Source: a virus
DNA length: 23,864 nucleotides
UHGV virus genome: UHGV-1462696
Direction: 5' to 3' (one strand)
Shown piece after piece: positions 101 to 23,864 of the stretch. The notes beneath the pieces are model-generated. The model was not told where the DNA came from. It made no database searches and saw nothing but the letters and a program-made list of their open reading frames with translations. A program made the position numbers and the translations under genes. Numbering within the stretch: the first letter of the stretch is position 1; each line of letters opens with the position of its first letter.

Positions 101-439
101 ATGGCTAAATCAGCAGCAGAGCGCAAAGCCGCTCAGCGCGCTCGGCAGTCCGCCGCCGGTGAGCGCAAAATTGAACTGGTGCTGGATAAGCAGGAGCAGG
201 AAATGCTGGCGCGGAACTGCGCCGCCCGGCGCCCTGGTCGCGATCCATATGAAATGGCCGAGTACATCGCGCTGCTGATCCGCCAGGATGATGCACGTGT
301 GCGCGGGCGTATAAAATCGATCAGCAGAAAACGTTGCGGTAAGTGCGGCGAGAGAGTTCCAGTTAATTCATGCCCGTGTAATGGTGACTCGCAATGCTGG
401 GTGACTAAAGGCTGGCATGAAACGAAATTAATAGTGTGA
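101..439 (+). CDS. Hypothetical small basic protein with C-terminal Cys-rich zinc-ribbon-like motif (CGKCG...CPCNGDSQC)
   Basis: 112-aa ORF with ATG at 101 and AGGA-like SD upstream; Lys/Arg-rich N-terminus, Cys cluster at C-terminus; lies directly upstream of the terminase genes. Function not recognised. Confidence 0.5.
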
Positions 440-514: not shown

Positions 515-525
515 GCATGGTACTA

Positions 526-540
526 TTACCACAACGGTAA
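526..540. promoter_or_regulatory. TTACC-N5-GGTAA palindromic motif (variant, spacer ACAAC), 18 nt upstream of the terminase small subunit start
   Basis: Read directly; one of six TTACC-N5-GGTAA sites in the window. Confidence 0.4.
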
Positions 541-557
541 CAATTACCACGGTGGTT

Positions 558-1154
558 ATGATGCCTGCTGAACCTAAAACCTATAAACGCAAATCAACGC
601 AATTTAAGCCGCTCACAGCAATGCAGGAGGCTTATTGCCAGTCATACATCAAAACGCCTGAAAACCAGACTCAGGCTGCGATTAACGCAGGATTCTCCCC
701 AAATACAGCGGCAGTTAAAGCCAGTGTCATGATGCGCGATGAACGCATTCAGAAACGGATTGCCGAGTTGATGGAGGAGCGCAACAAACGAATGCGTGTC
801 AGTGCTGATTACGTTCTCATGCGCCTGGTGGAGATCGACCAGATGGACGTGATCGACATCCTCAACGACGATGGGAGCCTTAAACCAATCCGTGAGTGGC
901 CGAAAATCTGGCGCACTACGCTTAGTGGCTTTGATCTGTCATCGACCATCATGAACATGAACGAGGATTCAATAGAGACAATCCTCAAAAAAATTAAATG
1001 GCCTGACAAGGTGAAGAACCTTGAGCTGATTGGTAAGCATGTTGATGTCAACGCATTCAAAGAACGTCTGGATGTTAATGTGAATGTGACAATTGCTGAT
1101 CGCATAGCAGCAGCCAGGAAGCGACTCAAAGAACGTCAGGATGATAATCAGTGA
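558..1154 (+). CDS. terS: Terminase small subunit (Terminase_2 / P27-type, N-terminal HTH)
   Basis: Motif QEAYCQSYIKTPENQTQAAINAGFSPNTAAVKAS matches the conserved N-terminal DNA-binding signature of Terminase_2-type small subunits. The track ORF begins at 480, but its first 26 codons cover the terminator hairpin and are low complexity; ATG at 558/561 is the likely start. Stop overlaps the large subunit start. Confidence 0.8.
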   Translation: MMPAEPKTYKRKSTQFKPLTAMQEAYCQSYIKTPENQTQAAINAGFSPNTAAVKASVMMRDERIQKRIAELMEERNKRMRVSADYVLMRLVEIDQMDVIDILNDDGSLKPIREWPKIWRTTLSGFDLSSTIMNMNEDSIETILKKIKWPDKVKNLELIGKHVDVNAFKERLDVNVNVTIADRIAAARKRLKERQDDNQ

Positions 1155-2627: not shown

Positions 2628-3368
2628 TTATTGCTTATTTTTCACGGCTTCAGCAATCATTCTCTCAGCCTGTGATGTATATGTTTTTCGCAAGGGTTCA
2701 TGGCCCATATGCAATACGATACTTTCCTTTTCTTTTTCCTTTAATTCTTGTATGAGATTATTTATTTTGGCCTCCCTATCTTCAAGCATTCTGGCGGACT
2801 TTTCTGCCTCAATCTTTAACGCTGCAGCCACTGATTGCATGTTTTCCAGCTTCTTATTCAATTCCAAAACCTTATCGGAGAGCCTATCTCTTTCCGACGT
2901 TAGCTCACCCATCCTGGCCTGTGACTCCGTAATTCTTTCCTTCATAGCCTGTATGTCTTTTTCGGCGCCAGTCTTAACTTTGTCGTATGTCACATCGTGC
3001 TTTGCCTTCAGGCGCTGCAGGCGTGTGGCGCGATGAATGCGCTTGGCCTTCCGGTGGTTCTCTATCGAATCGTAATTATCAAGAGGTTTGGCTTGCCACT
3101 TTGAAATCACGTTGTTGATCCAGGGCATGCCGCCGCACAGGATTATTGCTGAAACACATGGGAATGCTAATACCGTTTTCCAACTGCTATTGCTGGAAAT
3201 GTAGGTGATCTTGTCGATGATGCTGGAGTCGCTGAGGAGTAAGTATAAAATCGACTTCCAGTTAAAGGCGCACCATGACAGTGCGAACGCTCCAAACACT
3301 GGATTTCTGACCCTTTGCGCAGCGGTATTAACGGTTGAAGATAGGTATTCTTTAAGTGATTCAAGCAT
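2628..3368 (-). CDS. Membrane-anchored coiled-coil protein of unknown function (accessory; candidate abortive-infection / superinfection-exclusion effector)
   Basis: 246 aa; two hydrophobic segments in the N-terminal ~90 aa (FGAFALSWCAFNWKSILYLLL; VLAFPCVSAIILCGGMPWI) followed by ~130 aa of heptad-like charged sequence; AT-rich relative to flanks by eye; AAGGG SD upstream of ATG at 3368; opposite strand to the late operon. Confidence 0.6.
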   Translation of the reverse strand: MLESLKEYLSSTVNTAAQRVRNPVFGAFALSWCAFNWKSILYLLLSDSSIIDKITYISSNSSWKTVLAFPCVSAIILCGGMPWINNVISKWQAKPLDNYDSIENHRKAKRIHRATRLQRLKAKHDVTYDKVKTGAEKDIQAMKERITESQARMGELTSERDRLSDKVLELNKKLENMQSVAAALKIEAEKSARMLEDREAKINNLIQELKEKEKESIVLHMGHEPLRKTYTSQAERMIAEAVKNKQ

Positions 3369-3398
3369 GTCCAGGCCCTTTTAGGTTTTTTTCTGATT

Positions 3399-3413
3399 CT
3401 ACCTTTAAGGTAA
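3399..3413. promoter_or_regulatory. TTACC-N5-GGTAA-type palindrome (CTACC-TTTAA-GGTAA) in the promoter of the 246-aa gene
   Basis: 31-45 nt upstream of the ATG at 3368; on the gene strand the site reads TTACCTTAAAGGTAGAAT, so the -10-like TAGAAT overlaps it. Confidence 0.5.
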
Positions 3414-3480
3414 TCTTCGGTCATTATGAAAAACGTATCCCTATGAGGGGATAATGTCGTTGATATCCTCTGATGAGGAT

Positions 3481-4097: not shown

Positions 4098-4174
4098 TGG
4101 CGTGGCATGCAGGATTCGAACCTGCGACCAACCGCTTAGAAGGCGGTTGCTCTGTCCAACTGAGCTAATGCCAC
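4098..4174 (-). tRNA. tRNA-Arg (anticodon UCU), phage-encoded
   Basis: Reverse complement gives a 77-nt cloverleaf: acceptor GTGGCAT/ATGCCAC, D-arm GCTC-AGTTGGACA-GAGC, anticodon stem ACCGC/GCGGT with loop CTTCTAA (anticodon TCT), T-arm GCAGG-TTCGAAT-CCTGC, discriminator G, encoded CCA. Confidence 0.85.
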
Positions 4175-4496
4175 AACGCTGAGAGCACTTAGCCTGTTAA
4201 GGCGCCACACTTTGTCGCGGCTCCATAAATGCTCTCATCGTTGTACCCTCGTCTCTTCCGAGGCGTCACACCGAATCGCCGGGATGGTGAATCCCCGTGC
4301 GCGGAATAAAACCGCTCGACTTGCACATTCCGGCTACCTGGTTCGTTTGCCCGAGCAAGGGAGGGTGTCCCTTAAACGTATCCAGACCGCTATCGGCGCA
4401 TGTGCCATACGCCGTACTGCTCAAAATAAAAGCTCACTCCACCTGTTCAATTTAACGACAAGCCAGTCAGGTTAATAACCGGAATGAACCCTTTAC

Positions 4497-4511
4497 TTAC
4501 CTGAAAGGTAA
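4497..4511. promoter_or_regulatory. TTACC-TGAAA-GGTAA palindrome (17-mer identical to the site at 23536) in the divergent region between the tRNA and the portal module
   Basis: Read directly; 91 nt upstream of the ATG at 4602. Confidence 0.55.
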
Positions 4512-4601
4512 TAATTTGTGCGTTAAATGTCAACTTCCTACGATAAATAAATCATATGTGGTTAAATTGGTAATAATTTAATTGCGTACGGAGTCATTGA
4601 T

Positions 4602-4808
4602 ATGTGCATGGGTAGCTCACCATCAGTGCCTGCAACACCAGAAATTCAGGCAGCACCACAGGAGCAGGATGCCGCCGTTGTTGATGCCCGCGACGAAGAA
4701 ACTCGTCGCCGTCGCGCTGCTGCTGGTCGTAGTTCTACGCTGCTTACCGGTTCTCAGGGCGACACATCAACCGCTAATACCAGCGGTAAAACGCTGCTTG
4801 GTCAGTAA
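4602..4808 (+). CDS. Small hypothetical protein (68 aa) upstream of portal
   Basis: ATG preceded by GGAGTCATTGA, the same 11-mer that precedes the portal start; GC-rich coding-like composition; function unknown. Confidence 0.4.
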   Translation: MCMGSSPSVPATPEIQAAPQEQDAAVVDARDEETRRRRAAAGRSSTLLTGSQGDTSTANTSGKTLLGQ

Positions 4809-4822
4809 CCGGAGTCATTGAA

Positions 4823-6502
4823 ATGGCGGAAACAACTAAAGAGCGATTGAACAAACAGTTCGCACAACTTGAAAGCGAGCGTCAGTCGTTCGAGCCGCAC
4901 TGGCGCGAGTTGAGTGATTACATCAACCCGCGTGGTTCCCGCTTTCTGACTTCTGAGGTCAACCGTAACGATCGACGCAATACACGCATTATTGATTCGA
5001 CCGGGACTATGGCGGCGCGCACTCTCGCCAGCGGCATGATGTCAGGCATCACAAGCCCCGCGCGTCCGTGGTTTCGCCTGGCTACGCCAGATCCTGAAAT
5101 GATGGATTATGGCCCTGTTAAGTTGTGGCTTGAGGCGGTGCAGAACCGCATGAACGATATGTTCAATAAGTCGAATCTCTATCAGTCGCTGCCGCAGTTA
5201 TACGGAAGCCTCGGCACATACAGCACTGGTGCAATGGCAGTGCTGGAGGATGACGAGGACATCATTCGCACAATGCCATTCCCGATAGGCAGTTACTACC
5301 TGGCTAACTCACCTCGTGGCAGTGTGGACACCTGTTTTCGCAAGTTCTCTATGACTGTTCGTCAGCTTGTTCAGGAGTTCGGGCTAAATAACGTCAGCGA
5401 ATCCGTAAAAAGCATGTGGGAAAGCGGCACTTACGAGAAGTGGATTGAAGTGATGCATTCGGTTTACCCGAACATTGACCGCGATACATCGAAGCTGGAT
5501 AGCAAGAACAAGCCATTCAAATCGGTTTATTACGAGGTTGGCGGCGATAACGACAAGTTGTTGCGTGAGTCCGGATTCGATGAGTTTCCAATTATGGCTC
5601 CGCGCTGGGAAGTTAACGGCGAAGATGTTTATGGATCATCATGCCCGGGTATGCTGGCGCTTGGACCTGTTAAGGCATTGCAGCTTCTCCAGAAGCGCAA
5701 GTCGCAGTTGATTGATAAAGCCACCAATCCGCCGATGGTTGCTCCGACTTCCCTCAAGAATCAGCGCGCCTCCCTTCTTCCTGGCGACATCACGTATATC
5801 GATCAGATTACTGGTCAGGATGGTTTCAGGCCTGCTTATCTGGTTAACCCCAGTACAGCAGATCTGGTGGCAGACATTCAGGACACTCGCCAAATCATTA
5901 ACAGCGCCTACTTTGTCGATCTGTTCATGATGTTGCAGAACATCAATACCCGCTCGATGCCTGTTGAAGCGGTGATCGAAATGAAAGAAGAAAAACTTTT
6001 GATGTTGGGGCCGGTTCTGGAGCGTCTGAACGACGAATGTCTTAATCCTCTCATTGATCGCGCTTTCTCGATGATGGTGCGTAAAAACATGCTGCCGCCA
6101 CCGCCTGACGCGATGGAAGGCATGCCCCTGAAGGTCGAATACATTTCCGTCATGGCTCAGGCGCAGAAGTCTATCGGCCTGTCCAGTCTGGCGTCCACGG
6201 TTAACTTCATTGGTCAACTTGCGCAAGCGAAACCAGAAGCTCTCGACAAACTCAACGTTGATCAGGCGATCGATGCATTCGCTGATATGTCCGGAGTGTC
6301 TCCAACCGTCATTGTTCCGCAGGAACAGGTTGAGCAGGCTCGCCAGCAACGGGCACAGCAGCAACAGCAGCAACAAATGATGGCGATGGGGATGGCGGCG
6401 GCACAGGGTGCCAAGACGCTAAGCGAAGCTAAAACTTCGGATCCGAGTGTTTTGTCAGCTATGGCGAATGCAGTTAGTGGTCAGGGTGGGCAATCACAAT
6501 GA
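4823..6502 (+). CDS. Portal protein (T7 gp8-like head-to-tail connector)
   Basis: 559 aa; position after terminase; Q/M/A-rich C-terminal tail (QQQQQQQMMAMGMAAAQG) resembling the T7 gp8 C-terminus; strong SD. Confidence 0.75.
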   Translation: MAETTKERLNKQFAQLESERQSFEPHWRELSDYINPRGSRFLTSEVNRNDRRNTRIIDSTGTMAARTLASGMMSGITSPARPWFRLATPDPEMMDYGPVKLWLEAVQNRMNDMFNKSNLYQSLPQLYGSLGTYSTGAMAVLEDDEDIIRTMPFPIGSYYLANSPRGSVDTCFRKFSMTVRQLVQEFGLNNVSESVKSMWESGTYEKWIEVMHSVYPNIDRDTSKLDSKNKPFKSVYYEVGGDNDKLLRESGFDEFPIMAPRWEVNGEDVYGSSCPGMLALGPVKALQLLQKRKSQLIDKATNPPMVAPTSLKNQRASLLPGDITYIDQITGQDGFRPAYLVNPSTADLVADIQDTRQIINSAYFVDLFMMLQNINTRSMPVEAVIEMKEEKLLMLGPVLERLNDECLNPLIDRAFSMMVRKNMLPPPPDAMEGMPLKVEYISVMAQAQKSIGLSSLASTVNFIGQLAQAKPEALDKLNVDQAIDAFADMSGVSPTVIVPQEQVEQARQQRAQQQQQQQMMAMGMAAAQGAKTLSEAKTSDPSVLSAMANAVSGQGGQSQ

Positions 6503-18117: not shown

Positions 18118-20666
18118 TGGCAGCAAACGAATTTTTGACGCAGTGCGAGCGCAGTGTAAATGCTGCCGCTGGTCGCGAGCTTTCTTCCGATGAGATGGAG
18201 TCGCTGGTGCGTGACATGAACGACACCACTAGGCGAATTCTGGCGACCAATGAGGCGCTGTCTCTGGAAGAGGCCGCGATGCGCGCAGCGGAAGAACTGA
18301 GCAATGCCGATATGCTGGCAAAACAGATTGAGGCTCGCAATAAGGCAATCAACGCCCGTATTGCCGCACAACGACTTAGAGAGCTTCGTACTATCTGGAA
18401 AGACCGCCCGGATATCGGGCTTGAAGCAATGCTGGTTGGCCGCAACGATGCGCGTACCGGCGCCCGCCGGTCGGTATCTTCGGAGGTGGCGCAACTGCGC
18501 GGCAAGTATCATTCCGGTATCAACTACGATTTTGACCGTGCCGGACTGGTGCAATTCATCGCCAGCGGCAGCAATGACCGGGAAATTGCCGATGCAATGT
18601 GGCGCATAGGGCGCGGGCAGTCAACTGACGGTATGACAAAGCAATCCGTAAGCGCTGCACAAATCATCATGAAATGGCAGGAAACTGCGCGCATTGATGA
18701 GAACCGCGCCGGGGCATGGATACGCAAAGAGCCGGGCTATATAGTTCGCCAGTCACACGACATCATGAAGATCCGCGCCGCAGGTTATGAAGCATGGCGA
18801 AATGCTATTCTCCCGCGCCTTGATGAGCGCACTTTTGACGGCGTGGCTGACCGCGAGCAGTTCATGCGTAACATTTATAACGGGCTGGCTTCCGGCGTGC
18901 ATCTTACATCTGAAAAGCCCGATTGGATGAATGGCTTTAAGGGATCGGCGAACGCAGCTAAACGCGCCAGCCAAGAGCGAATTTTGCACTTCAAAGATGG
19001 TATCTCGTGGCACGAGTACAACCAGCAATTCGGCACCGGCAGCCTGCGAGAAGCGCTGTTTGGTGGCTTAAACAGCGCTGCCCGCACAACGGGCATGATG
19101 CGCGTACTGGGCACTAACCCACAGAACATGTTTAAGTACCTGACGGACGCCATTGCTGAAGATATCAGCAAATCCGGAAGACCGGCAGCGTTGGCTGACT
19201 ACATGACGAAGGTGCGTCGCATTAACCGTACCGTAATGCCGCAGGTTGACGGCTCGCTAAATATTCCTGGCAGCGTAGGCTGGGCCAATGCGTCGGCGGC
19301 TGTACGCGGCTGGTTGCGTATGAGCCAACTTGGTGGTGCGGTAATCTCATCGTTTAACGACGTGCCTATCGCCGCTACCGAGATGCGCTACCAAGGGCAG
19401 AATTTTATGCAGGCGTTGCTTGGTGCTATGAGAGGCCGCTTCACGCGTTACAACAGCGCGGAGCAGAAAGAGATCCTTTCCTCTATCGGAGTTTATTCCG
19501 ACTCCATGACGCAGGAAATCATCCGGCGCATATCTGGTGATGACACGCTGAATGGAAAGCTTGGTCGCGCGCAGCAGCTTTTCTTTAAGTACAACCTCAT
19601 GAACTTCTGGACCGAGAGCGGTCGCAACAGCAACGCCATGATGATAACCAACTGGCTTGCAAAGAATGCTGACCAGTCTCATGCGCGGCTACCGGAAGAC
19701 CTGCGACGCGTGCTGGATCTGCACGGTATTGGCGAACGTGAGTGGGAAATTTTTCGCAACATGGACATGGCCGATAGCGAAGGTCGTAAGTTCATGACGA
19801 CCAGCGGCATCCGCGGCGTGCCTGACGAAGTGATTGCCGGTTATGTAGAGAGTAAGGGGATCAAACCAACGCAGCGCGCTATCGCTGACGCACGCGATCA
19901 ATTGGAAGGGCAGTTGCGCGGCTACATCCTTGACCGCCTGAATATCGCCATGTCAGAGCCTGGCGATCGCACGCAGGCGTTTATGAAGATGGGCACGGTG
20001 CCAGGAACGGTGGCTGGGGAAGCAATACGATTCGCTGGTCAGTACAAATCGTTCACTGCAAGCTTCATGCAGAACGTACTAGGACGCGAAGTATTCGGGC
20101 GTGGTTATATTCCTGCTGGGCTTGGTGAGTCGAAAACCGGATCGCTGACGAATGCGCTGCTACGTAACGGGAAGGGGGCTTTCCTTGGTGCTGCAAACCT
20201 CTTTGTCTGGGCGACTATGTTTGGTTATATCTCCATGCAGTCAAAACTCATGCTGAAAGGGCAAACACCACGCCCGGCAGATGCCAAGACGTTTCTCGCA
20301 GCCGCATCTCAGGGGGGCGGTCTTGGCATCTTGGGTGACTTCATGTTTGGCGAGGTCAACCGCATGGGGGCCGGGCCGGTTACGTCGCTAATGGGGCCAG
20401 CAGCATCGAACGCTGACAGCATTATCACGCTGCTCCAGCAGACCACGAGAGGGGATGCAGATTTGGGTGACTGGTATCGCACGGCACTTGACAATACGCC
20501 ATTCCTCAACGTGTTCTGGCTTCGTACGGCGATGAATGGTTTAATATTGAACCGGATACAAGATGCCCTTGACCCAGGCTCTCTTGAGCGTTATCAGCGC
20601 CGTGTTGAGCGTGAGCAGGGTAACGACTTTCTGATCCCACCATCGCAGTTCATGCTAGGTAAATAA
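18117..20666 (+). CDS. Putative internal virion / ejection protein (about 850 aa)
   Basis: Large ORF, TGATG overlap with upstream gene; hydrophobic C-terminal segments (FLGAANLFVWATMFGYI) consistent with a membrane-interacting ejection protein. Confidence 0.5.
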   Translation: MAANEFLTQCERSVNAAAGRELSSDEMESLVRDMNDTTRRILATNEALSLEEAAMRAAEELSNADMLAKQIEARNKAINARIAAQRLRELRTIWKDRPDIGLEAMLVGRNDARTGARRSVSSEVAQLRGKYHSGINYDFDRAGLVQFIASGSNDREIADAMWRIGRGQSTDGMTKQSVSAAQIIMKWQETARIDENRAGAWIRKEPGYIVRQSHDIMKIRAAGYEAWRNAILPRLDERTFDGVADREQFMRNIYNGLASGVHLTSEKPDWMNGFKGSANAAKRASQERILHFKDGISWHEYNQQFGTGSLREALFGGLNSAARTTGMMRVLGTNPQNMFKYLTDAIAEDISKSGRPAALADYMTKVRRINRTVMPQVDGSLNIPGSVGWANASAAVRGWLRMSQLGGAVISSFNDVPIAATEMRYQGQNFMQALLGAMRGRFTRYNSAEQKEILSSIGVYSDSMTQEIIRRISGDDTLNGKLGRAQQLFFKYNLMNFWTESGRNSNAMMITNWLAKNADQSHARLPEDLRRVLDLHGIGEREWEIFRNMDMADSEGRKFMTTSGIRGVPDEVIAGYVESKGIKPTQRAIADARDQLEGQLRGYILDRLNIAMSEPGDRTQAFMKMGTVPGTVAGEAIRFAGQYKSFTASFMQNVLGREVFGRGYIPAGLGESKTGSLTNALLRNGKGAFLGAANLFVWATMFGYISMQSKLMLKGQTPRPADAKTFLAAASQGGGLGILGDFMFGEVNRMGAGPVTSLMGPAASNADSIITLLQQTTRGDADLGDWYRTALDNTPFLNVFWLRTAMNGLILNRIQDALDPGSLERYQRRVEREQGNDFLIPPSQFMLGK

Positions 20667-21304: not shown

Positions 21305-21329
21305 CACAAAAAAGCCCGCAACGCGGGCT
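21305..21329 (-). terminator. Intrinsic terminator on minus strand (AGCCCGC-gtt-GCGGGCT followed by TTTTTTGT), overlapping the stop of the YafO-like gene
   Basis: Read from the reverse complement. Confidence 0.6.
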
Positions 21330-21874
21330 TATTCCTTCCATTTATCAGAAAAAAGATCTTCTTCTAAAGGCATTGGTTCTGTTTTTGTTTTCTCAAAGAA
21401 TTGATAACTGATAGTGATTGCTTCCTCTTTAAACTCTTCTTGCTCAGTTATGTTGTGGGCATCTGCGTCAACAAAAAACATAACCAGCGCATCACGATTG
21501 TGATTTACCGAATAAACTAAAAAGCAATCACTTGTTGGTATGCATTTTACTTGCACAGACGCTATATTTTTCCATGCATCCCAAGATGATTTTTTACCAG
21601 TGTGTTTTTTATCACTATCTTCTGGAATATAGTCTTGGTTATCGACATGAGTATGCCTGACATTTAGTTTAAGCATTTCTGTCGGACGAGCAAATGCAGC
21701 ATCTTTACCAAGAGATGGATGGTATCCCGTTTTCCAATACTGGGTAAAGGCATCAGATACTTTCTTCAGCTCAAGATCAGATGCACAAAGGGCCGAGAAA
21801 TTTTGCGTATGCAATACTCGACCCTTATATCTGACAATTTGATTTTTATCATTCTGCGACGCAGACGAACTCAT
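21329..21874 (-). CDS. YafO-like toxin candidate (ribosome-dependent mRNA interferase family) with acidic C-terminal tail
   Basis: Motifs FTQYWKTGYHPSLGKDAAF, NVRHTHV and CFLVYSVNHNRDALVMFFVDADAH parallel YafO segments as recalled (FISYKRDGVLPDIFGRDALY; VAHIHL; AHLVYCQGAFDEQAWLLIAILKPEPH); AT-rich; AAGGA SD before ATG at 21874; the track ORF extends to 21901. Confidence 0.5.
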   Translation of the reverse strand: MSSSASQNDKNQIVRYKGRVLHTQNFSALCASDLELKKVSDAFTQYWKTGYHPSLGKDAAFARPTEMLKLNVRHTHVDNQDYIPEDSDKKHTGKKSSWDAWKNIASVQVKCIPTSDCFLVYSVNHNRDALVMFFVDADAHNITEQEEFKEEAITISYQFFEKTKTEPMPLEEDLFSDKWKE

Positions 21875-22028
21875 AATTTTCCTTATTGTTACGAGAATCA
21901 AAGAAAGCTCGGGATACGCGACTTGCGTGATCTTTTGTCATAGTAACTTTTACGTACTCTACGCTTCCATTGAAAGAACGTCTTGCGGCAGCTTGCGCTC
22001 TACGCATCTGCAATTTTTCGTTTCGCAT
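21849..22028 (-). CDS. Small basic ORF (59 aa, below the track cutoff); candidate antitoxin or regulator
   Basis: Hand-translated from the reverse complement: MRNEKLQMRRAQAAARRSFNGSVEYVKVTMTKDHASRVSRAFFDSRNNKENYEFVCVAE; GAGG SD 7 nt upstream; overlaps the start of the YafO-like gene by 26 nt in another frame; sigma70-like promoter TTGGTT-17-TGTAAT upstream. Confidence 0.3.
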   Translation of the reverse strand: MRNEKLQMRRAQAAARRSFNGSVEYVKVTMTKDHASRVSRAFFDSRNNKENYEFVCVAE

Positions 22029-22175: not shown

Positions 22176-22886
22176 TCAGAAGAACCCAGCCTTGTCGTTG
22201 ATGTACTCCGCGTGAGTCTGGATATCACGCAGGCATTTGCTCACACCAACGATGTAGCAAAACATGGTGGTCAGCTCCGCCGCCGCGCCCGATACATCGT
22301 GCCCGTCTTCCTGCAACTGGTTCAGCAAATTCATCAGCAGTGAGTTCTCCGTCAGGCCGAGAACACCAGACGGAGAATGAATCAGACTGCGGTAGCCGGG
22401 CTTCAGTGGGGCACTGTAGGTTTTGTTCTCTATCTTCATTGCCTGCATCACTGCTGATGCTGTGGCGTTGGCTACCTGGTCGGCAACCATCTTTATGCGT
22501 TCTTCCTGCGGGAGCGAGTTTTTAATGTAACTTCCGGTGCGGCGGATCTGAGGAAGAACCTCACCTGTAACCCATTTACGAAAGCGGTAGGGGATAGTGC
22601 CTGGTGTCACCGCATCGCGGCAGCGGAGGATCAGTGTGTAGAGGCCTGACTCGGAGATGATGTTGATCTCTTTTACTCGGCTGTCAAAAATTGCACGATG
22701 TTCATGCCCTATGTTGAACATAGACCTTTCATCATCATCCAGTTTTTCAAGTGCTTGGGTGACGTTTTGGATACGCAGCGCACTACAAACGTCTTGGGCT
22801 ACAAACCATGGTTGGCCATCGATAATGATGGAACGGATAGGGTTAACAGATTCAAATTTGAAGATGGCAGTTTGAGCATTAGCCAT
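22176..22886 (-). CDS. ant: Phage antirepressor-like protein (N-terminal Bro-N domain plus C-terminal Ant-type domain)
   Basis: N-terminal AIFKFESVNPIRSIIIDGQPWFVAQDVCSALRIQNVTQALEKLDDDE is a typical Bro-N signature; ATG at 22886 with GGAG SD is preferred over the GTG at 22901 used by the track. Confidence 0.75.
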   Translation of the reverse strand: MANAQTAIFKFESVNPIRSIIIDGQPWFVAQDVCSALRIQNVTQALEKLDDDERSMFNIGHEHRAIFDSRVKEINIISESGLYTLILRCRDAVTPGTIPYRFRKWVTGEVLPQIRRTGSYIKNSLPQEERIKMVADQVANATASAVMQAMKIENKTYSAPLKPGYRSLIHSPSGVLGLTENSLLMNLLNQLQEDGHDVSGAAAELTTMFCYIVGVSKCLRDIQTHAEYINDKAGFF

Positions 22887-23041
22887 GGTGGTTATCTCCA
22901 CTTAGTGATTTTAATCACCACCGCAACGCCAATTACTGGTGGTGAACTGGACAAGGTTGGCGTACCGGCCTAAGTGGTACCGGCGTCCTTTCGGACCCCT
23001 GCCCAGCCCACCATAATTCGGATATGGCTGTGCTTAACGCA

Positions 23042-23065
23042 TAAAAAAACCACGTCTGGCGTGGT
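23042..23065 (-). terminator. Intrinsic terminator on minus strand (ACCACG-ccaga-CGTGGT followed by TTTTTTTAT)
   Basis: Read from the reverse complement; downstream of the truncated ant paralog. Confidence 0.6.
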
Positions 23066-23155
23066 ATGCGCCACTTAGTAACTCGGGACGCCAATCCCGG
23101 CACTGGATTTTGCCAGTGCCCGATTACTATGGCACAAGAGGAGTGCGATGTAAAT

Positions 23156-23170
23156 TTACCGCAAAGGTAA
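23156..23170. promoter_or_regulatory. TTACC-GCAAA-GGTAA palindrome embedded in the 30-nt loop of a 10-bp inverted repeat (AGAGGAGTGC 23137-23146 / GCACTCCTCT 23177-23186)
   Basis: Read directly. Confidence 0.5.
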
Positions 23171-23201
23171 ATATAAGCACTCCTCTTGGTAATTTCAAAT
23201 C

Positions 23202-23459
23202 TTATCTGGTTTGTTTTCGTAATTGTTCGGCACAATAGTCGAGATGTGTTTGCAGATCCCGCATAGACATCTGTGAGCTGGTGACGTAGTTAATCAGTGC
23301 AGTCAGTTCGGCAAGTGGGCCATCGACATTAAATCCATCCTTATCGAGATCCCGGAGTAATTTCATCAAGTGCGATCCCTCCACCAGTGACCTGACGCCT
23401 CCCGGCGTGTGAATCCTTTCGGTAAATCCGTCTTCCAGTGGATAGTGATACTGCTGCAT
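23202..23459 (-). CDS. Stand-alone paralog of the antirepressor C-terminal domain (about 85 aa)
   Basis: ERIHTPGGVRSLVEGSHLMKLLRDLDKDGFNVDGPLAELTALINYV...RDLQTHLDYC aligns with SLIHSPSGVLGLTENSLLMNLLNQLQEDGHDVSGAAAELTTMFCYI...RDIQTHAEYI in the ant product; ATG at 23459 with GGAG SD; the track ORF begins at 23525. Confidence 0.6.
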   Translation of the reverse strand: MQQYHYPLEDGFTERIHTPGGVRSLVEGSHLMKLLRDLDKDGFNVDGPLAELTALINYVTSSQMSMRDLQTHLDYCAEQLRKQTR

Positions 23460-23535
23460 CTTATCTTCTCCATGTAATAACTGTATATTTATACAGTAGC
23501 AAATAATTTGTTTGCTATCCAGCACGTTTTGCGAA

Positions 23536-23550
23536 TTACCTGAAAGGTAA
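23536..23550. promoter_or_regulatory. TTACC-TGAAA-GGTAA palindrome in the divergent region between the ant paralog and the tail fibre gene
   Basis: 17-mer TTACCTGAAAGGTAATA identical to the site at 4497; 105 nt upstream of the tail fibre ATG. Confidence 0.55.
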
Positions 23551-23654
23551 TATCTGTTCGTATTTATGGGTTATCTATCCATATGTGGTTTTTTAGGTAA
23601 TAGAATGATCGGATATGCGGCGCAACGGGTGCTGCGACTATCTGGAGATTTAAC

Positions 23655-23864
23655 ATGACGGTCTCAACCGAAGTTGACCACAACGAATACACAGGTAACG
23701 GCGTTACGACATCATTTCCGTACACCTTTAGGGTTTTCAATAAATCTGATCTGGTAGTACAGGTGGTTGACCTTGACGAAAATATCGCTGTGCTGGCTCT
23801 TGATACTGATTACACAGTTACCGGGGCTGGAGGATATAACGGCGGTAATGTAATTCTCTCGAAG
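23655..23864 (+). CDS. Tail fibre / tailspike protein, N-terminal part (truncated by window end)
   Basis: N-terminal EYTGNGVTTSFPYTF ... DTDYTV pattern is typical of the conserved particle-binding N-terminal domain of podovirus tail fibres (T7 gp17-like); the ORF runs off the window. Confidence 0.7.
   Translation, partial: MTVSTEVDHNEYTGNGVTTSFPYTFRVFNKSDLVVQVVDLDENIAVLALDTDYTVTGAGGYNGGNVILSK

Follow-up and report, generated by a model that had tools for sequence, protein, structure and literature searches.

A second conserved box beside the predicted Rep operators upstream of the portal and tailspike genes in epsilon15-type podophages

Work on podovirus structure and on serotype conversion uses phages of the epsilon15, phiV10 and SPN1S type as models, and they also serve as O157 and Salmonella reporter phages. 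A close described regulatory system is the Rep/Ant/LexA lytic switch of SPC32H, for which the studies of Kim and Ryu in 2013 and Kim et al. in 2016 reportedly deal with ant control and the disassembly of Rep, and not with late promoters or a second box. We take PDB entries 5D4Z and 5D50 to be this SPC32H Rep/Ant switch. These entries hold Rep solved alone and together with its antirepressor (PDB 5D4Z, 5D50), and according to PMC9638917 Rep is tetrameric and its binding sites are palindromes. In vB_EcoP_ZX5, overexpression of the repressor abolishes the holin and lysin transcripts (vB_EcoP_ZX5 paper). The epsilon15 record (GenBank AY150271.2) annotates a 17-bp repeat as 'protein_bind repressor, lysogeny' at seven places, as predicted sites; one lies at 2931-2947 upstream of gp3/portal, another at 19895-19911 upstream of the tailspike gene, and the repeat, ATTACC-N5-GGTAAT, is also found at PR, PL, terS and RuvC. 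Apart from this 17-bp palindrome, the record holds at these places only nearby IHF and RNase III predictions, and neither box 2 (the subject of this work), nor a half-operator at the -10, nor a fixed spacing is annotated in it. Literature searches on epsilon15/phiV10 promoters, operators or the motif CCATATATGG, and on how late genes are switched on in epsilon15/phiV10/SPN1S-type phages, returned nothing relevant, and they brought up neither mapped 5' ends nor reporter or binding results for these promoters in any relative.

The window analysed here is a stretch of 23,864 nt from the virus genome UHGV-1462696, which we assign to an epsilon15/phiV10-type podophage (Uetakevirus). Its first gene is the last of the early-right genes; terS, terL and the structural operon follow, and the window ends shortly after the tailspike gene has begun (Table 1). 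Two of its intergenic regions, upstream of the gp3 homologue and portal gene and upstream of the tailspike gene, are 93-99% identical to their counterparts in phiV10, TL-2011b and related E. coli podophages, and 73-81% identical to those of epsilon15, SPN1S/SPC32H, Enterobacter phage Tyrion and Klebsiella phages, all in or near the genus Uetakevirus. Each of the two spacers is the sole place where transcription of its operon could begin and should thus contain a promoter, because the upstream neighbours, tRNA-Arg and ant, are divergent or on the other strand. SPC32H likewise has a tRNA-Arg at the matching position.

Both spacers share a second box, box 2. We propose that it forms the part nearest the promoter in a Rep-controlled module found at most Uetakevirus lytic operons, with a weak -35 and a palindrome bound by a phage factor. 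We regard this reading as about evenly balanced between right and wrong. Within the window, the module is predicted to serve the structural operon, from gp3 and the portal gene onward, and the tailspike gene. The operator half of the arrangement is already known, since it is annotated in epsilon15. Box 2, its palindromic core and the phased spacing are apparently undescribed: we found no description in accessible records and literature, and an earlier one is possible.

Table 1. Positions of genes, predicted sites and candidate promoters in the window
Feature	Position	Strand	Remarks
Homologue of epsilon15 gp49/phiV10p55, last early-right gene	101..439	+	phrog_536 'transcriptional regulator', E = 5e-54
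Adjacent pair of operator-like sites, ATTACCACAACGGTAAC and ATTACCACGGTGGTTAT	525..559		directly 5' of the terS ATG at 561
tRNA-Arg(tct)	4098..4174	-	ARAGORN and Rfam tRNA, 73 bits
Portal-unit predicted Rep operator CTTACCTGAAAGGTAAT	4496..4512	.	one mismatch to ATTACC-N5-GGTAAT
Candidate leftward promoter	4505..4533	-	TTGACA (reverse complement of 4528-4533), 17-nt spacer, TACCTT (reverse complement of 4505-4510); read from the sequence
Portal box-2 core	4552..4563	+	imperfect palindrome TCATATGTGG, then TT
Portal GGTAAT half-operator with -10 candidates	4569..4579	+	half-operator 4569-4574, fused to TAATAA 4571-4576 and TAATTT 4574-4579
68-aa gp3 homologue and portal gene	4602..4808 and 4823..6502	+	first genes of the structural operon, predicted to be served by the portal unit
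Operator-like site TTTACCGCAAAGGTAAA and candidate leftward promoter	23155..23211	-	site at 23155-23171, overlapping the -10 of TTGAAA-N17-TATATT upstream of isrK/C4
ant, small antirepressor gene, divergent from the tailspike gene	23202..23459	-	PDB 5D50 chain E 'Anti-repressor protein', E = 1.4e-46
Predicted ant promoter region	23481..23521	-	LexA box; -10 TACTGT (reverse complement of 23493-23498); -35 TGGATA (reverse complement of 23516-23521)
Tailspike-unit predicted Rep operator ATTACCTGAAAGGTAAT	23535..23551	.	perfect match to ATTACC-N5-GGTAAT
Tailspike box-2 core	23579..23590	+	imperfect palindrome CCATATGTGG, then TT
Tailspike GGTAAT half-operator with -10 candidate	23596..23606	+	half-operator 23596-23601, fused to TAGAAT 23601-23606
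GC-rich hairpin, predicted 5' UTR of the tailspike gene	23610..23644	+	directly before Shine-Dalgarno GGAG
Start of the tailspike/tail fibre gene	23655..23864	+	cut by the window end

The first box is a 17-mer, TTACCTGAAAGGTAATA, that a preliminary description had reported as identical upstream of both genes; it is indeed exact at 4497-4513 and 23536-23552 and nowhere else in the window. With up to three mismatches the window holds four matches, a number that none of 100 shuffles reaches. This 17-mer sits one base off the portal operator, and the two operators of Table 1 are the orthologues of the annotated epsilon15 sites at 2931-2947 and 19895-19911. Compared with shuffled sequence, the ATTACC-N5-GGTAAT pattern is about threefold more frequent in the window if three mismatches are tolerated, and the excess is about tenfold or more with a limit of two. 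Triplets of it flank rep in epsilon15, SPC32H, phiV10 and Tyrion, and single copies stand ahead of other operons in every full genome examined. From the epsilon15 annotation and this layout, the 17-bp palindrome is a predicted Rep operator.

The rep gene itself is located outside the window, and the switch that would act on Rep is partly inside it. As in SPC32H, where the orthologue is annotated ant, the window has an ant homologue that is preceded by a LexA box and points away from the tailspike gene. The LexA box CTGTATATTTATACAG at 23481-23496 is perfect (CTGT-N8-ACAG) and overlaps the proposed ant -10, TACTGT; the blocks of this promoter are conserved in 66 variants, and its hexamers are candidates assigned by their sequence. 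The 23.5-kb region can therefore be described as a divergent control region, with the ant promoter pointing leftward, the Rep operator in the middle, and box 2 and the tailspike gene rightward. The epsilon15 Rep matches PDB 5D50_A with E = 8e-128.

Box 2 follows the 17-mer on its 3' side in both spacers. The pattern CATATGTGGTT-N3-T(T/A)GGTAATA occurs in the window at 4553-4575 (CATATGTGGTTaaaTTGGTAATA) and 23580-23602 (CATATGTGGTTtttTAGGTAATA) only; when up to three mismatches are allowed on both strands of the 23.9 kb, the same two sites are the only ones, against a shuffle mean of 0.01, and none of 100 shuffles reaches two. Direct reading, mismatch search and shuffles thus bear out the shared second box of the preliminary description. 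Its distance of about 45-55 nt from the upstream palindrome agrees with our counts (56 and 44 nt, start to start), and the GGTAAT half-site and -10-like hexamer that it noted are both conserved, TAGAAT being the top sigma-70 candidate in four of four genomes scored. Its end coordinates, 4577 and 23606, take in the -10-like bases beyond the pattern. From the end of ATTACC-N5-GGTAAT to CATATG there are 40 nt in the portal unit and 28 nt in the tailspike unit.

Judged from its sequence, box 2 is a composite of an imperfect palindrome of 12-14 bp, A-n-(C/T)-CATAT-R-TGGTT, which occupies the position expected for a -35, and a GGTAAT half-operator fused to a -10-like hexamer. The centres of palindrome and half-operator are 9.5 bp apart in both window units. 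Across 25 distinct instances the palindrome has the consensus A-n-(C/T)-C-A-T-A-T-R-T-G-G-T-T, and its right half, TGGTT, is invariant in 24-25 of the 25, which come from phages of four host genera. The left half is much looser, so that a symmetric dimer site is not certain, a point against our reading, and the lysis units of phiV10 and Tyrion contain perfect 14-bp palindromes, AACCATATATGGTT. In epsilon15, box 2 reads TCATATGTGGTTAAATTGGTAATAATTT before gp3 and TCATATAAGGTTTTTAGGGTAATAGAAT before the tailspike gene, and blocks of the box are common to phiV10, SPC32H, Tyrion, HEMP4 and two Klebsiella phages.

Conservation within close relatives gives a finer picture. From IMG/VR we obtained 58 distinct portal and 66 distinct tailspike upstream sequences; the portal-protein search there yields relatives with 99-100% portal identity only, and informs polymorphism, not diversity. 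Among 56 tailspike variants the pattern resembles a footprint: the operator half-sites have a mean column entropy of 0.11 and box 2 one of 0.23, against 0.65 for the gap. This gap is free in sequence and constant in length in 53 of these 56 variants and in all 58 portal variants, as one expects for two bound proteins, or for one protein and RNA polymerase, held in a fixed geometry. Hardly any tailspike variant departs from the string GGTAATA(G/A)AAT, although variation is seen in the 3-5 nt that precede it, and the G/A polymorphism falls at the least critical -10 position of TAGAAT.

The module is neither confined to the window nor to late genes. Motif searches place both boxes at homologous positions in epsilon15, phiV10, SPC32H, Tyrion, BUCT711, Kp4865-1 and HEMP4, so that the preliminary description withstands the refutation it had named, a lack of the boxes in related phages; SPC32H, for example, has operator and box-2 units at its portal, tailspike and lysis positions. 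Palindrome and nearby operator recur ahead of the lysis cassette, of the replication operon (gp40 class) and of the RuvC/DUF1064 operon, and in Tyrion and the Klebsiella phages the palindrome lies inside PL as well. The earlier proposal of a duplicated late-promoter/operator unit holds broadly as regards a putative promoter/operator unit. Its other two elements do not stand: instead of a simple duplication in this phage we find an old, genus-wide, multi-copy module with class-specific sequence and spacing, and a unit whose CATATRTGGTT core and operator also occur before lysis, replication (gp40) and RuvC/DUF1064 operons and in some PL is not late-specific. Palindrome cores within 60 bp of an operator number one to six per genome, with BUCT711 having only one, against about zero in 30 dinucleotide shuffles; the count of cores alone is not enriched (2-6 against 2.2-3.5 in shuffles), only their co-location with operators is. 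An IMG/VR scan for operator, gap and palindrome gave, among the matches listed, contigs of 2-46 kb, many of about 40 kb.

The spacing between operator and palindrome is characteristic of each class. Measured from centre to centre it is 52.5 bp in the portal class and 40.5 bp in the tailspike class (eight genomes compared for each), 43.5 bp in the lysis class, 42.5 bp in the RuvC/DUF1064 class and 19.5 bp in the gp40 class, and it is invariant within each class over seven to eight diverged genomes, with a single exception of 20.5 bp in one genome of the gp40 class. All five distances are at most 1.5 bp off whole helical turns, which is suggestive, not proof, of helical phasing between operator and palindrome. 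In the RuvC class and PL the layout is an operator, 18 nt, TTGAnn, N5, the palindrome, N2, and a -10 fused to a second operator, the last two -10 bases being the first of that operator; the two full operators are 62 bp apart. The portal unit of the window repeats this spacing, as the centre of a pseudo-operator at 4558-4574 is 62 bp from the upstream operator. In the tailspike unit, operator and half-operator are 50 bp apart, not whole helical turns, and this counts against the reading we propose.

Fixed, nearly whole-turn spacing could also mean that palindrome and half-operator are extra contacts of the Rep tetramer within one composite operator, with a second HTH-like domain of Rep perhaps reaching the palindrome. 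In epsilon15 Rep, Pfam HTH_3 falls at residues 104-150, within the crystallised C-terminal fragment 92-198, and the phiV10 record notes two HTH motifs in the repressor. The order of sites is compatible as well: operator, 19.5 bp, palindrome, about 40-42.5 bp, operator at gp40, and the mirror image of this in the RuvC class and PL. But PR has three operators and no palindrome, the lysis unit of HEMP4 has a palindrome without an upstream operator (a point that counts against our own reading too), and the palindrome takes different positions along the roughly 62 bp between the operators, at 19.5, 42.5 or 52.5 bp. Moreover, CCATA, the half-site of the palindrome, bears no relation to ATTACC, and the C-terminal domain of Rep reportedly serves tetramerisation and Ant binding in the published SPC32H work. 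We consider an exclusively Rep-bound module improbable.

Common descent is another way to obtain similar units. Box 2 might be a core promoter inherited from one ancestral promoter-operator, its palindromy incidental, with only RNA polymerase and Rep binding. The portal unit contains GGTAATAATT, the same string as the epsilon15 PR -10/operator; the left half of the palindrome is weakly conserved; and all classes resemble rearranged copies of one layout. Against this, the core sequence is constant across differing -10 and -35 registers, which would not be so for a fixed promoter element, and TGGTT is kept through four host genera while adjacent bases drift. Descent without a dedicated binding protein is, in our view, quite unlikely.

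Where, then, is the promoter in each unit? A scan for consensus promoters finds no canonical one on the plus strand in either region, its only match being on the minus strand inside the tailspike coding sequence. The -35 hexamers of the window units, TCCATA and ATCATA, match three of six positions each and neither is canonical, and those of the epsilon15 and Klebsiella tailspike units, TTCATA, match four of six. The -10 candidates are better: TAGAAT at 23601-23606 is conserved, matches five of six positions and has T at -12, A at -11 and T at -7; in the portal unit, TAATTT has all three of these bases, and TAATAA has T at -12 and A at -11 with A in place of T at -7. Weight matrices pick T(C/T/A)CATA-17-TAGAAT as the best candidate of the tailspike class (top in four of four genomes scored; palindrome centre at about -29.5), TTGATC-17-CAAAAT for the gp40 class (-10 fused to TACC; palindrome at about -40.5) and TTGAWW-17/18-TTAAAT or TAAATT for the RuvC/DUF1064 class (palindrome at about -19.5). 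For the portal class the same scan gives no consistent sigma-70 candidate, which counts against our reading. The TGG of the palindrome might serve as an extended -10 'TGn' in the portal unit (TGGTTAAAT); as no other unit fits this, we do not adopt it for the module at large.

Relative to the likely -10, the palindrome thus lies at about -19.5, at -26.5 to -29.5, or at -40.5, depending on the class. Since its sequence is kept while the -10 register shifts, the palindrome is likely to be a binding site itself and not a fixed polymerase contact, which argues for a putative protein-binding site separable from the half-operator. All of these positions overlap the core promoter, and this speaks against our reading, a repressor being no less plausible there than an activator. 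In the main alternative, a second repressor, such as the Cro-like gp39 or another down-regulator of the lytic phase, would use the palindrome as its operator, and box 2 would be a doubly repressed sigma-70 promoter with no activator. The palindrome is in the spacer in the RuvC class and at PL, covers -35 and spacer in the tailspike class, and abuts the -35 in the gp40 class; unaided promoter scores of 9.0 (gp40), 8.2-11.4 (RuvC) and 10.6 (epsilon15 tailspike) are at least at the 90th percentile of random 150-nt windows; and gp39 matches phrog_35 'transcriptional repressor'. However, a protein shutting off replication, structural, tailspike and lysis genes and not PR would make poor lytic logic, the rep operon shows no extra gene to supply such a protein in the lysogen, and the -35 hexamers of the portal and E. 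coli-type tailspike promoters are poor. On balance we think a second repressor unlikely, though it deserves more weight than the readings that dispense with a further phage protein.

The palindrome might alternatively be the site of an enterobacterial host DNA-binding protein, and the motif is indeed identical in phages of Escherichia, Salmonella, Enterobacter and Klebsiella. To our knowledge no enterobacterial regulator has a site of this type. The pattern searches point away from one too: neither of the two regions searched holds a match to an IHF, CRP, LexA, sigma-54, Ogr, CII or MotA pattern, and the gap that holds the predicted IHF sites of epsilon15 is hypervariable. In these searches the Ogr/P4 Delta dyad TGT-N12-ACA had no match on either strand of 4480-4601 or 23500-23654, and the lambda CII motif TTGC-N6-TTGC, the T4 MotA motif TGCTT, the sigma-54 pattern GG-N10-GC (TGGCAC-N5-TTGC) and the CRP and IHF patterns had none in either region. 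Resemblances to sigma-32, DnaA, PhoP and OmpR sites were judged poor by eye. We regard a host factor as very improbable. As a separate observation, the invariant TGGTT stands about 10 nt before TAGAAT, a positional resemblance to the MotA box and nothing more.

Returning to a phage-encoded factor, three small putative DNA-binding proteins could be candidates for the palindrome binder: gp39, gp40 and the gp49-like protein. Among the proteins scanned, no homologue of CII, MotA, Ogr or Mu C/Mor-type activators was identified. The second candidate, gp40, has 67 residues and a Cys/His cluster; the distribution of its zinc-finger domain was considered as a clue and set aside as uninformative, since the domain turns up widely in phages that are unrelated and often lytic. 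The gp49-like protein encoded at 101..439 has no Pfam, NCBIfam or PDB match, and by eye it looks ribbon-helix-helix-like, followed by a cysteine cluster. A P2-like Yersinia phage lacking both boxes encodes a homologue with 45% identity, which at this level of identity is weak evidence against the gp49-like protein as binder. Neither distribution tells the three candidates apart or links one of them to the palindrome. More specifically, the palindrome may be the site of a Uetakevirus lytic master regulator (gp39, gp40 or the gp49-like protein) that is helically phased with the Rep operators and forms a three-site complex at each lytic operon, its position setting either activation, where it replaces the -35, or shut-off, where it lies in the spacer. 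We offer this extension of our reading tentatively, as possible and less than probable.

How might such a module work? In the lysogen, tetrameric Rep would bind cooperatively to two sites, the operator upstream and the half-operator that overlaps the -10 at a distance of 62 or 50 bp, and occupancy of both sites would keep the promoter of each operon silent directly. After DNA damage, LexA would leave the ant promoter, Ant would take Rep apart, and the promoters would become accessible. Full activity would still require an early phage protein on the palindrome, since the -35 is weak or absent. In early promoters with the palindrome in the spacer, namely the RuvC class and some PL, the same protein would damp transcription, and activation of late and damping of early promoters by one palindrome-binding protein could constitute an early-to-late switch.

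Parts of this scheme have parallels elsewhere. Like the looping systems of lambda CI (OR/OL), GalR and LacI, the module combines an operator pair about 60 bp apart with an oligomeric repressor; in contrast to them, looping here is a proposal, the proximal site is a half-site in both window units, the tailspike spacing is 50 bp, and the palindrome adds a third conserved site in between. With activator-dependent phage promoters (CII at PRE, the MotA box at -30, P2 Ogr, Mu C/Mor) it shares a weak or missing -35 and a conserved site that overlaps or replaces it, whereas TTGC-N6-TTGC, TGCTT and TGT-N12-ACA are absent in both regions and activation here is putative. The presence of the box-2 palindrome at a repressing position in early promoters recalls the dual regulator p4 of phi29.

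That operator, palindrome and -10 recur with precise spacing ahead of each lytic operon hints at direct control of all these operons by the prophage repressor, and the module predicts a second DNA-binding regulator beside Rep. The finding would be ordinary should box 2 amount to no more than a Rep half-site on a weak sigma-70 promoter. If the master-regulator reading were true, repression and early-to-late timing would run through one module and not through an antiterminator or a single late operon. Elements of 12-17 bp and a shortlist of three small proteins provide concrete targets for experiments.

The window holds further candidate sites. The -10 of the candidate leftward promoter at 4505..4533, which from its hexamers may be a promoter, falls within the portal operator, and the TGTCAA block upstream of portal is kept among the 58 variants and across genera; tRNA-Arg(tct) is a possible product of this promoter. 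The operator-like sites before terS have an epsilon15 counterpart at 12-27 that is annotated as a repressor site. Upstream of isrK/C4, TTGAAA-N17-TATATT is likewise a putative promoter, judged by its hexamers, and the same region includes a box-2-like sequence, CTTATCTGGTT, inside the 3' end of ant. In the window as a whole the Rfam matches are tRNA, isrK and C4 only, with no family over 4480-4600 or 23520-23650. The tailspike 5' hairpin has a folding energy of -17.3 kcal/mol (z = -3.1), and relatives keep a GC-rich, hairpin-forming stretch of different sequence at the same position.

Besides its predicted rightward role at the portal genes, the portal-unit operator may also control a leftward tRNA transcript, as the -10 (TACCTT) of a candidate leftward promoter is contained within this operator (Table). 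In SPC32H, a tRNA-Arg is found at the equivalent place. Upstream of the operator, a segment of ~100 nt (4319-4416) shares 89% identity with lambdoid and Stx-converting phages (cdtI, mEp460 and Stx2a phages) that are otherwise unrelated to this phage, and it looks like a small mosaic segment.

Features near the portal, tailspike, terS and ant genes (coordinates in the window)
Feature	Coordinates	Strand	Remarks
Two adjacent operator-like sites	525-559		Between the terminator 3' of the gp49-like gene and the ATG of terS (561)
Operator-like site ATTACCTTAAAGGTAGA	3398-3414		28 nt upstream of a 246-aa ORF (2628-3368, minus strand)
tRNA-Arg(tct)	4098-4174	-	
Candidate leftward promoter TTGACA-N17-TACCTT	4505-4533	-	Conserved; ~320 nt upstream of tRNA-Arg(tct)
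Operator-like site ATTACCTCAAGGGTAAA	22088-22104		Fused to candidate promoter TTGCAG-N17-TACTAT
Bro-N domain ORF	22176-22901		
C4 antisense RNA, P1/P7 immI type	22935-23018	-	Rfam, 66 bits
isrK Hfq-binding sRNA	23043-23119	-	Rfam, 67 bits
GC-rich hairpin, predicted tailspike leader	23610-23644		-17.3 kcal/mol, z = -3.1; close to predicted 5' end

The isrK and C4 RNAs are flanked by the small LexA-controlled ant gene on one side and the Bro-N ORF on the other, which suggests that the phage has, beside its SPC32H-type Ant, a second antirepressor-like module that is under RNA control. Just 5' of isrK, a candidate leftward promoter, TTGAAA-N17-TATATT, has its -10 overlapped by the operator-like TTTACCGCAAAGGTAAA, and the 3' end of ant contains the box-2-like CTTATCTGGTT (both within 23155-23211). 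This arrangement, with an operator-like site on the -10 and a box-2-like site, is the same in phiV10, Tyrion and HEMP4.

Further operator-like sites precede accessory genes on the minus strand: one lies at 3398-3414, and the other, together with its candidate promoter, is positioned 5' of two ORFs, a small one and a YafO-toxin-like one (21329-21901). A recurrent feature, present at terS, PL, RuvC, gp40 and isrK, is a -10 that ends in AT and is fused to TACC. The listed terS ORF starts, like that annotated in phiV10, at a TTG (480), so that the two adjacent operator-like sites would fall within terS; a start at the ATG at 561 agrees better with the epsilon15 annotation.

Are the operator and the palindrome always found together? 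In the lysis unit of the relative HEMP4 (~37830-37940), the palindrome CCATAAATGGTT is kept, in the spacer of GTAACA-17-TATTAT, with no recognisable operator upstream of it, which shows that the two boxes need not occur together. At the position of the tailspike leader hairpin, the GC-rich stretch of the Salmonella, Enterobacter and Klebsiella relatives differs in sequence and also looks hairpin-forming.

In the epsilon15 repressor (32690-33286), the only Pfam HTH_3 match (residues 104-150) is located within the portion crystallised as the domain for tetramerisation and Ant binding, and not in the N-terminal part. Finally, the gp49-like protein (101-439) has no match in Pfam, NCBIfam or PDB, and translation may in fact begin 3' of the listed ATG (101), since every tblastn match begins at residue 23 or later. 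Its homologues are found in P2-like Yersinia phages and many Vibrio phages.
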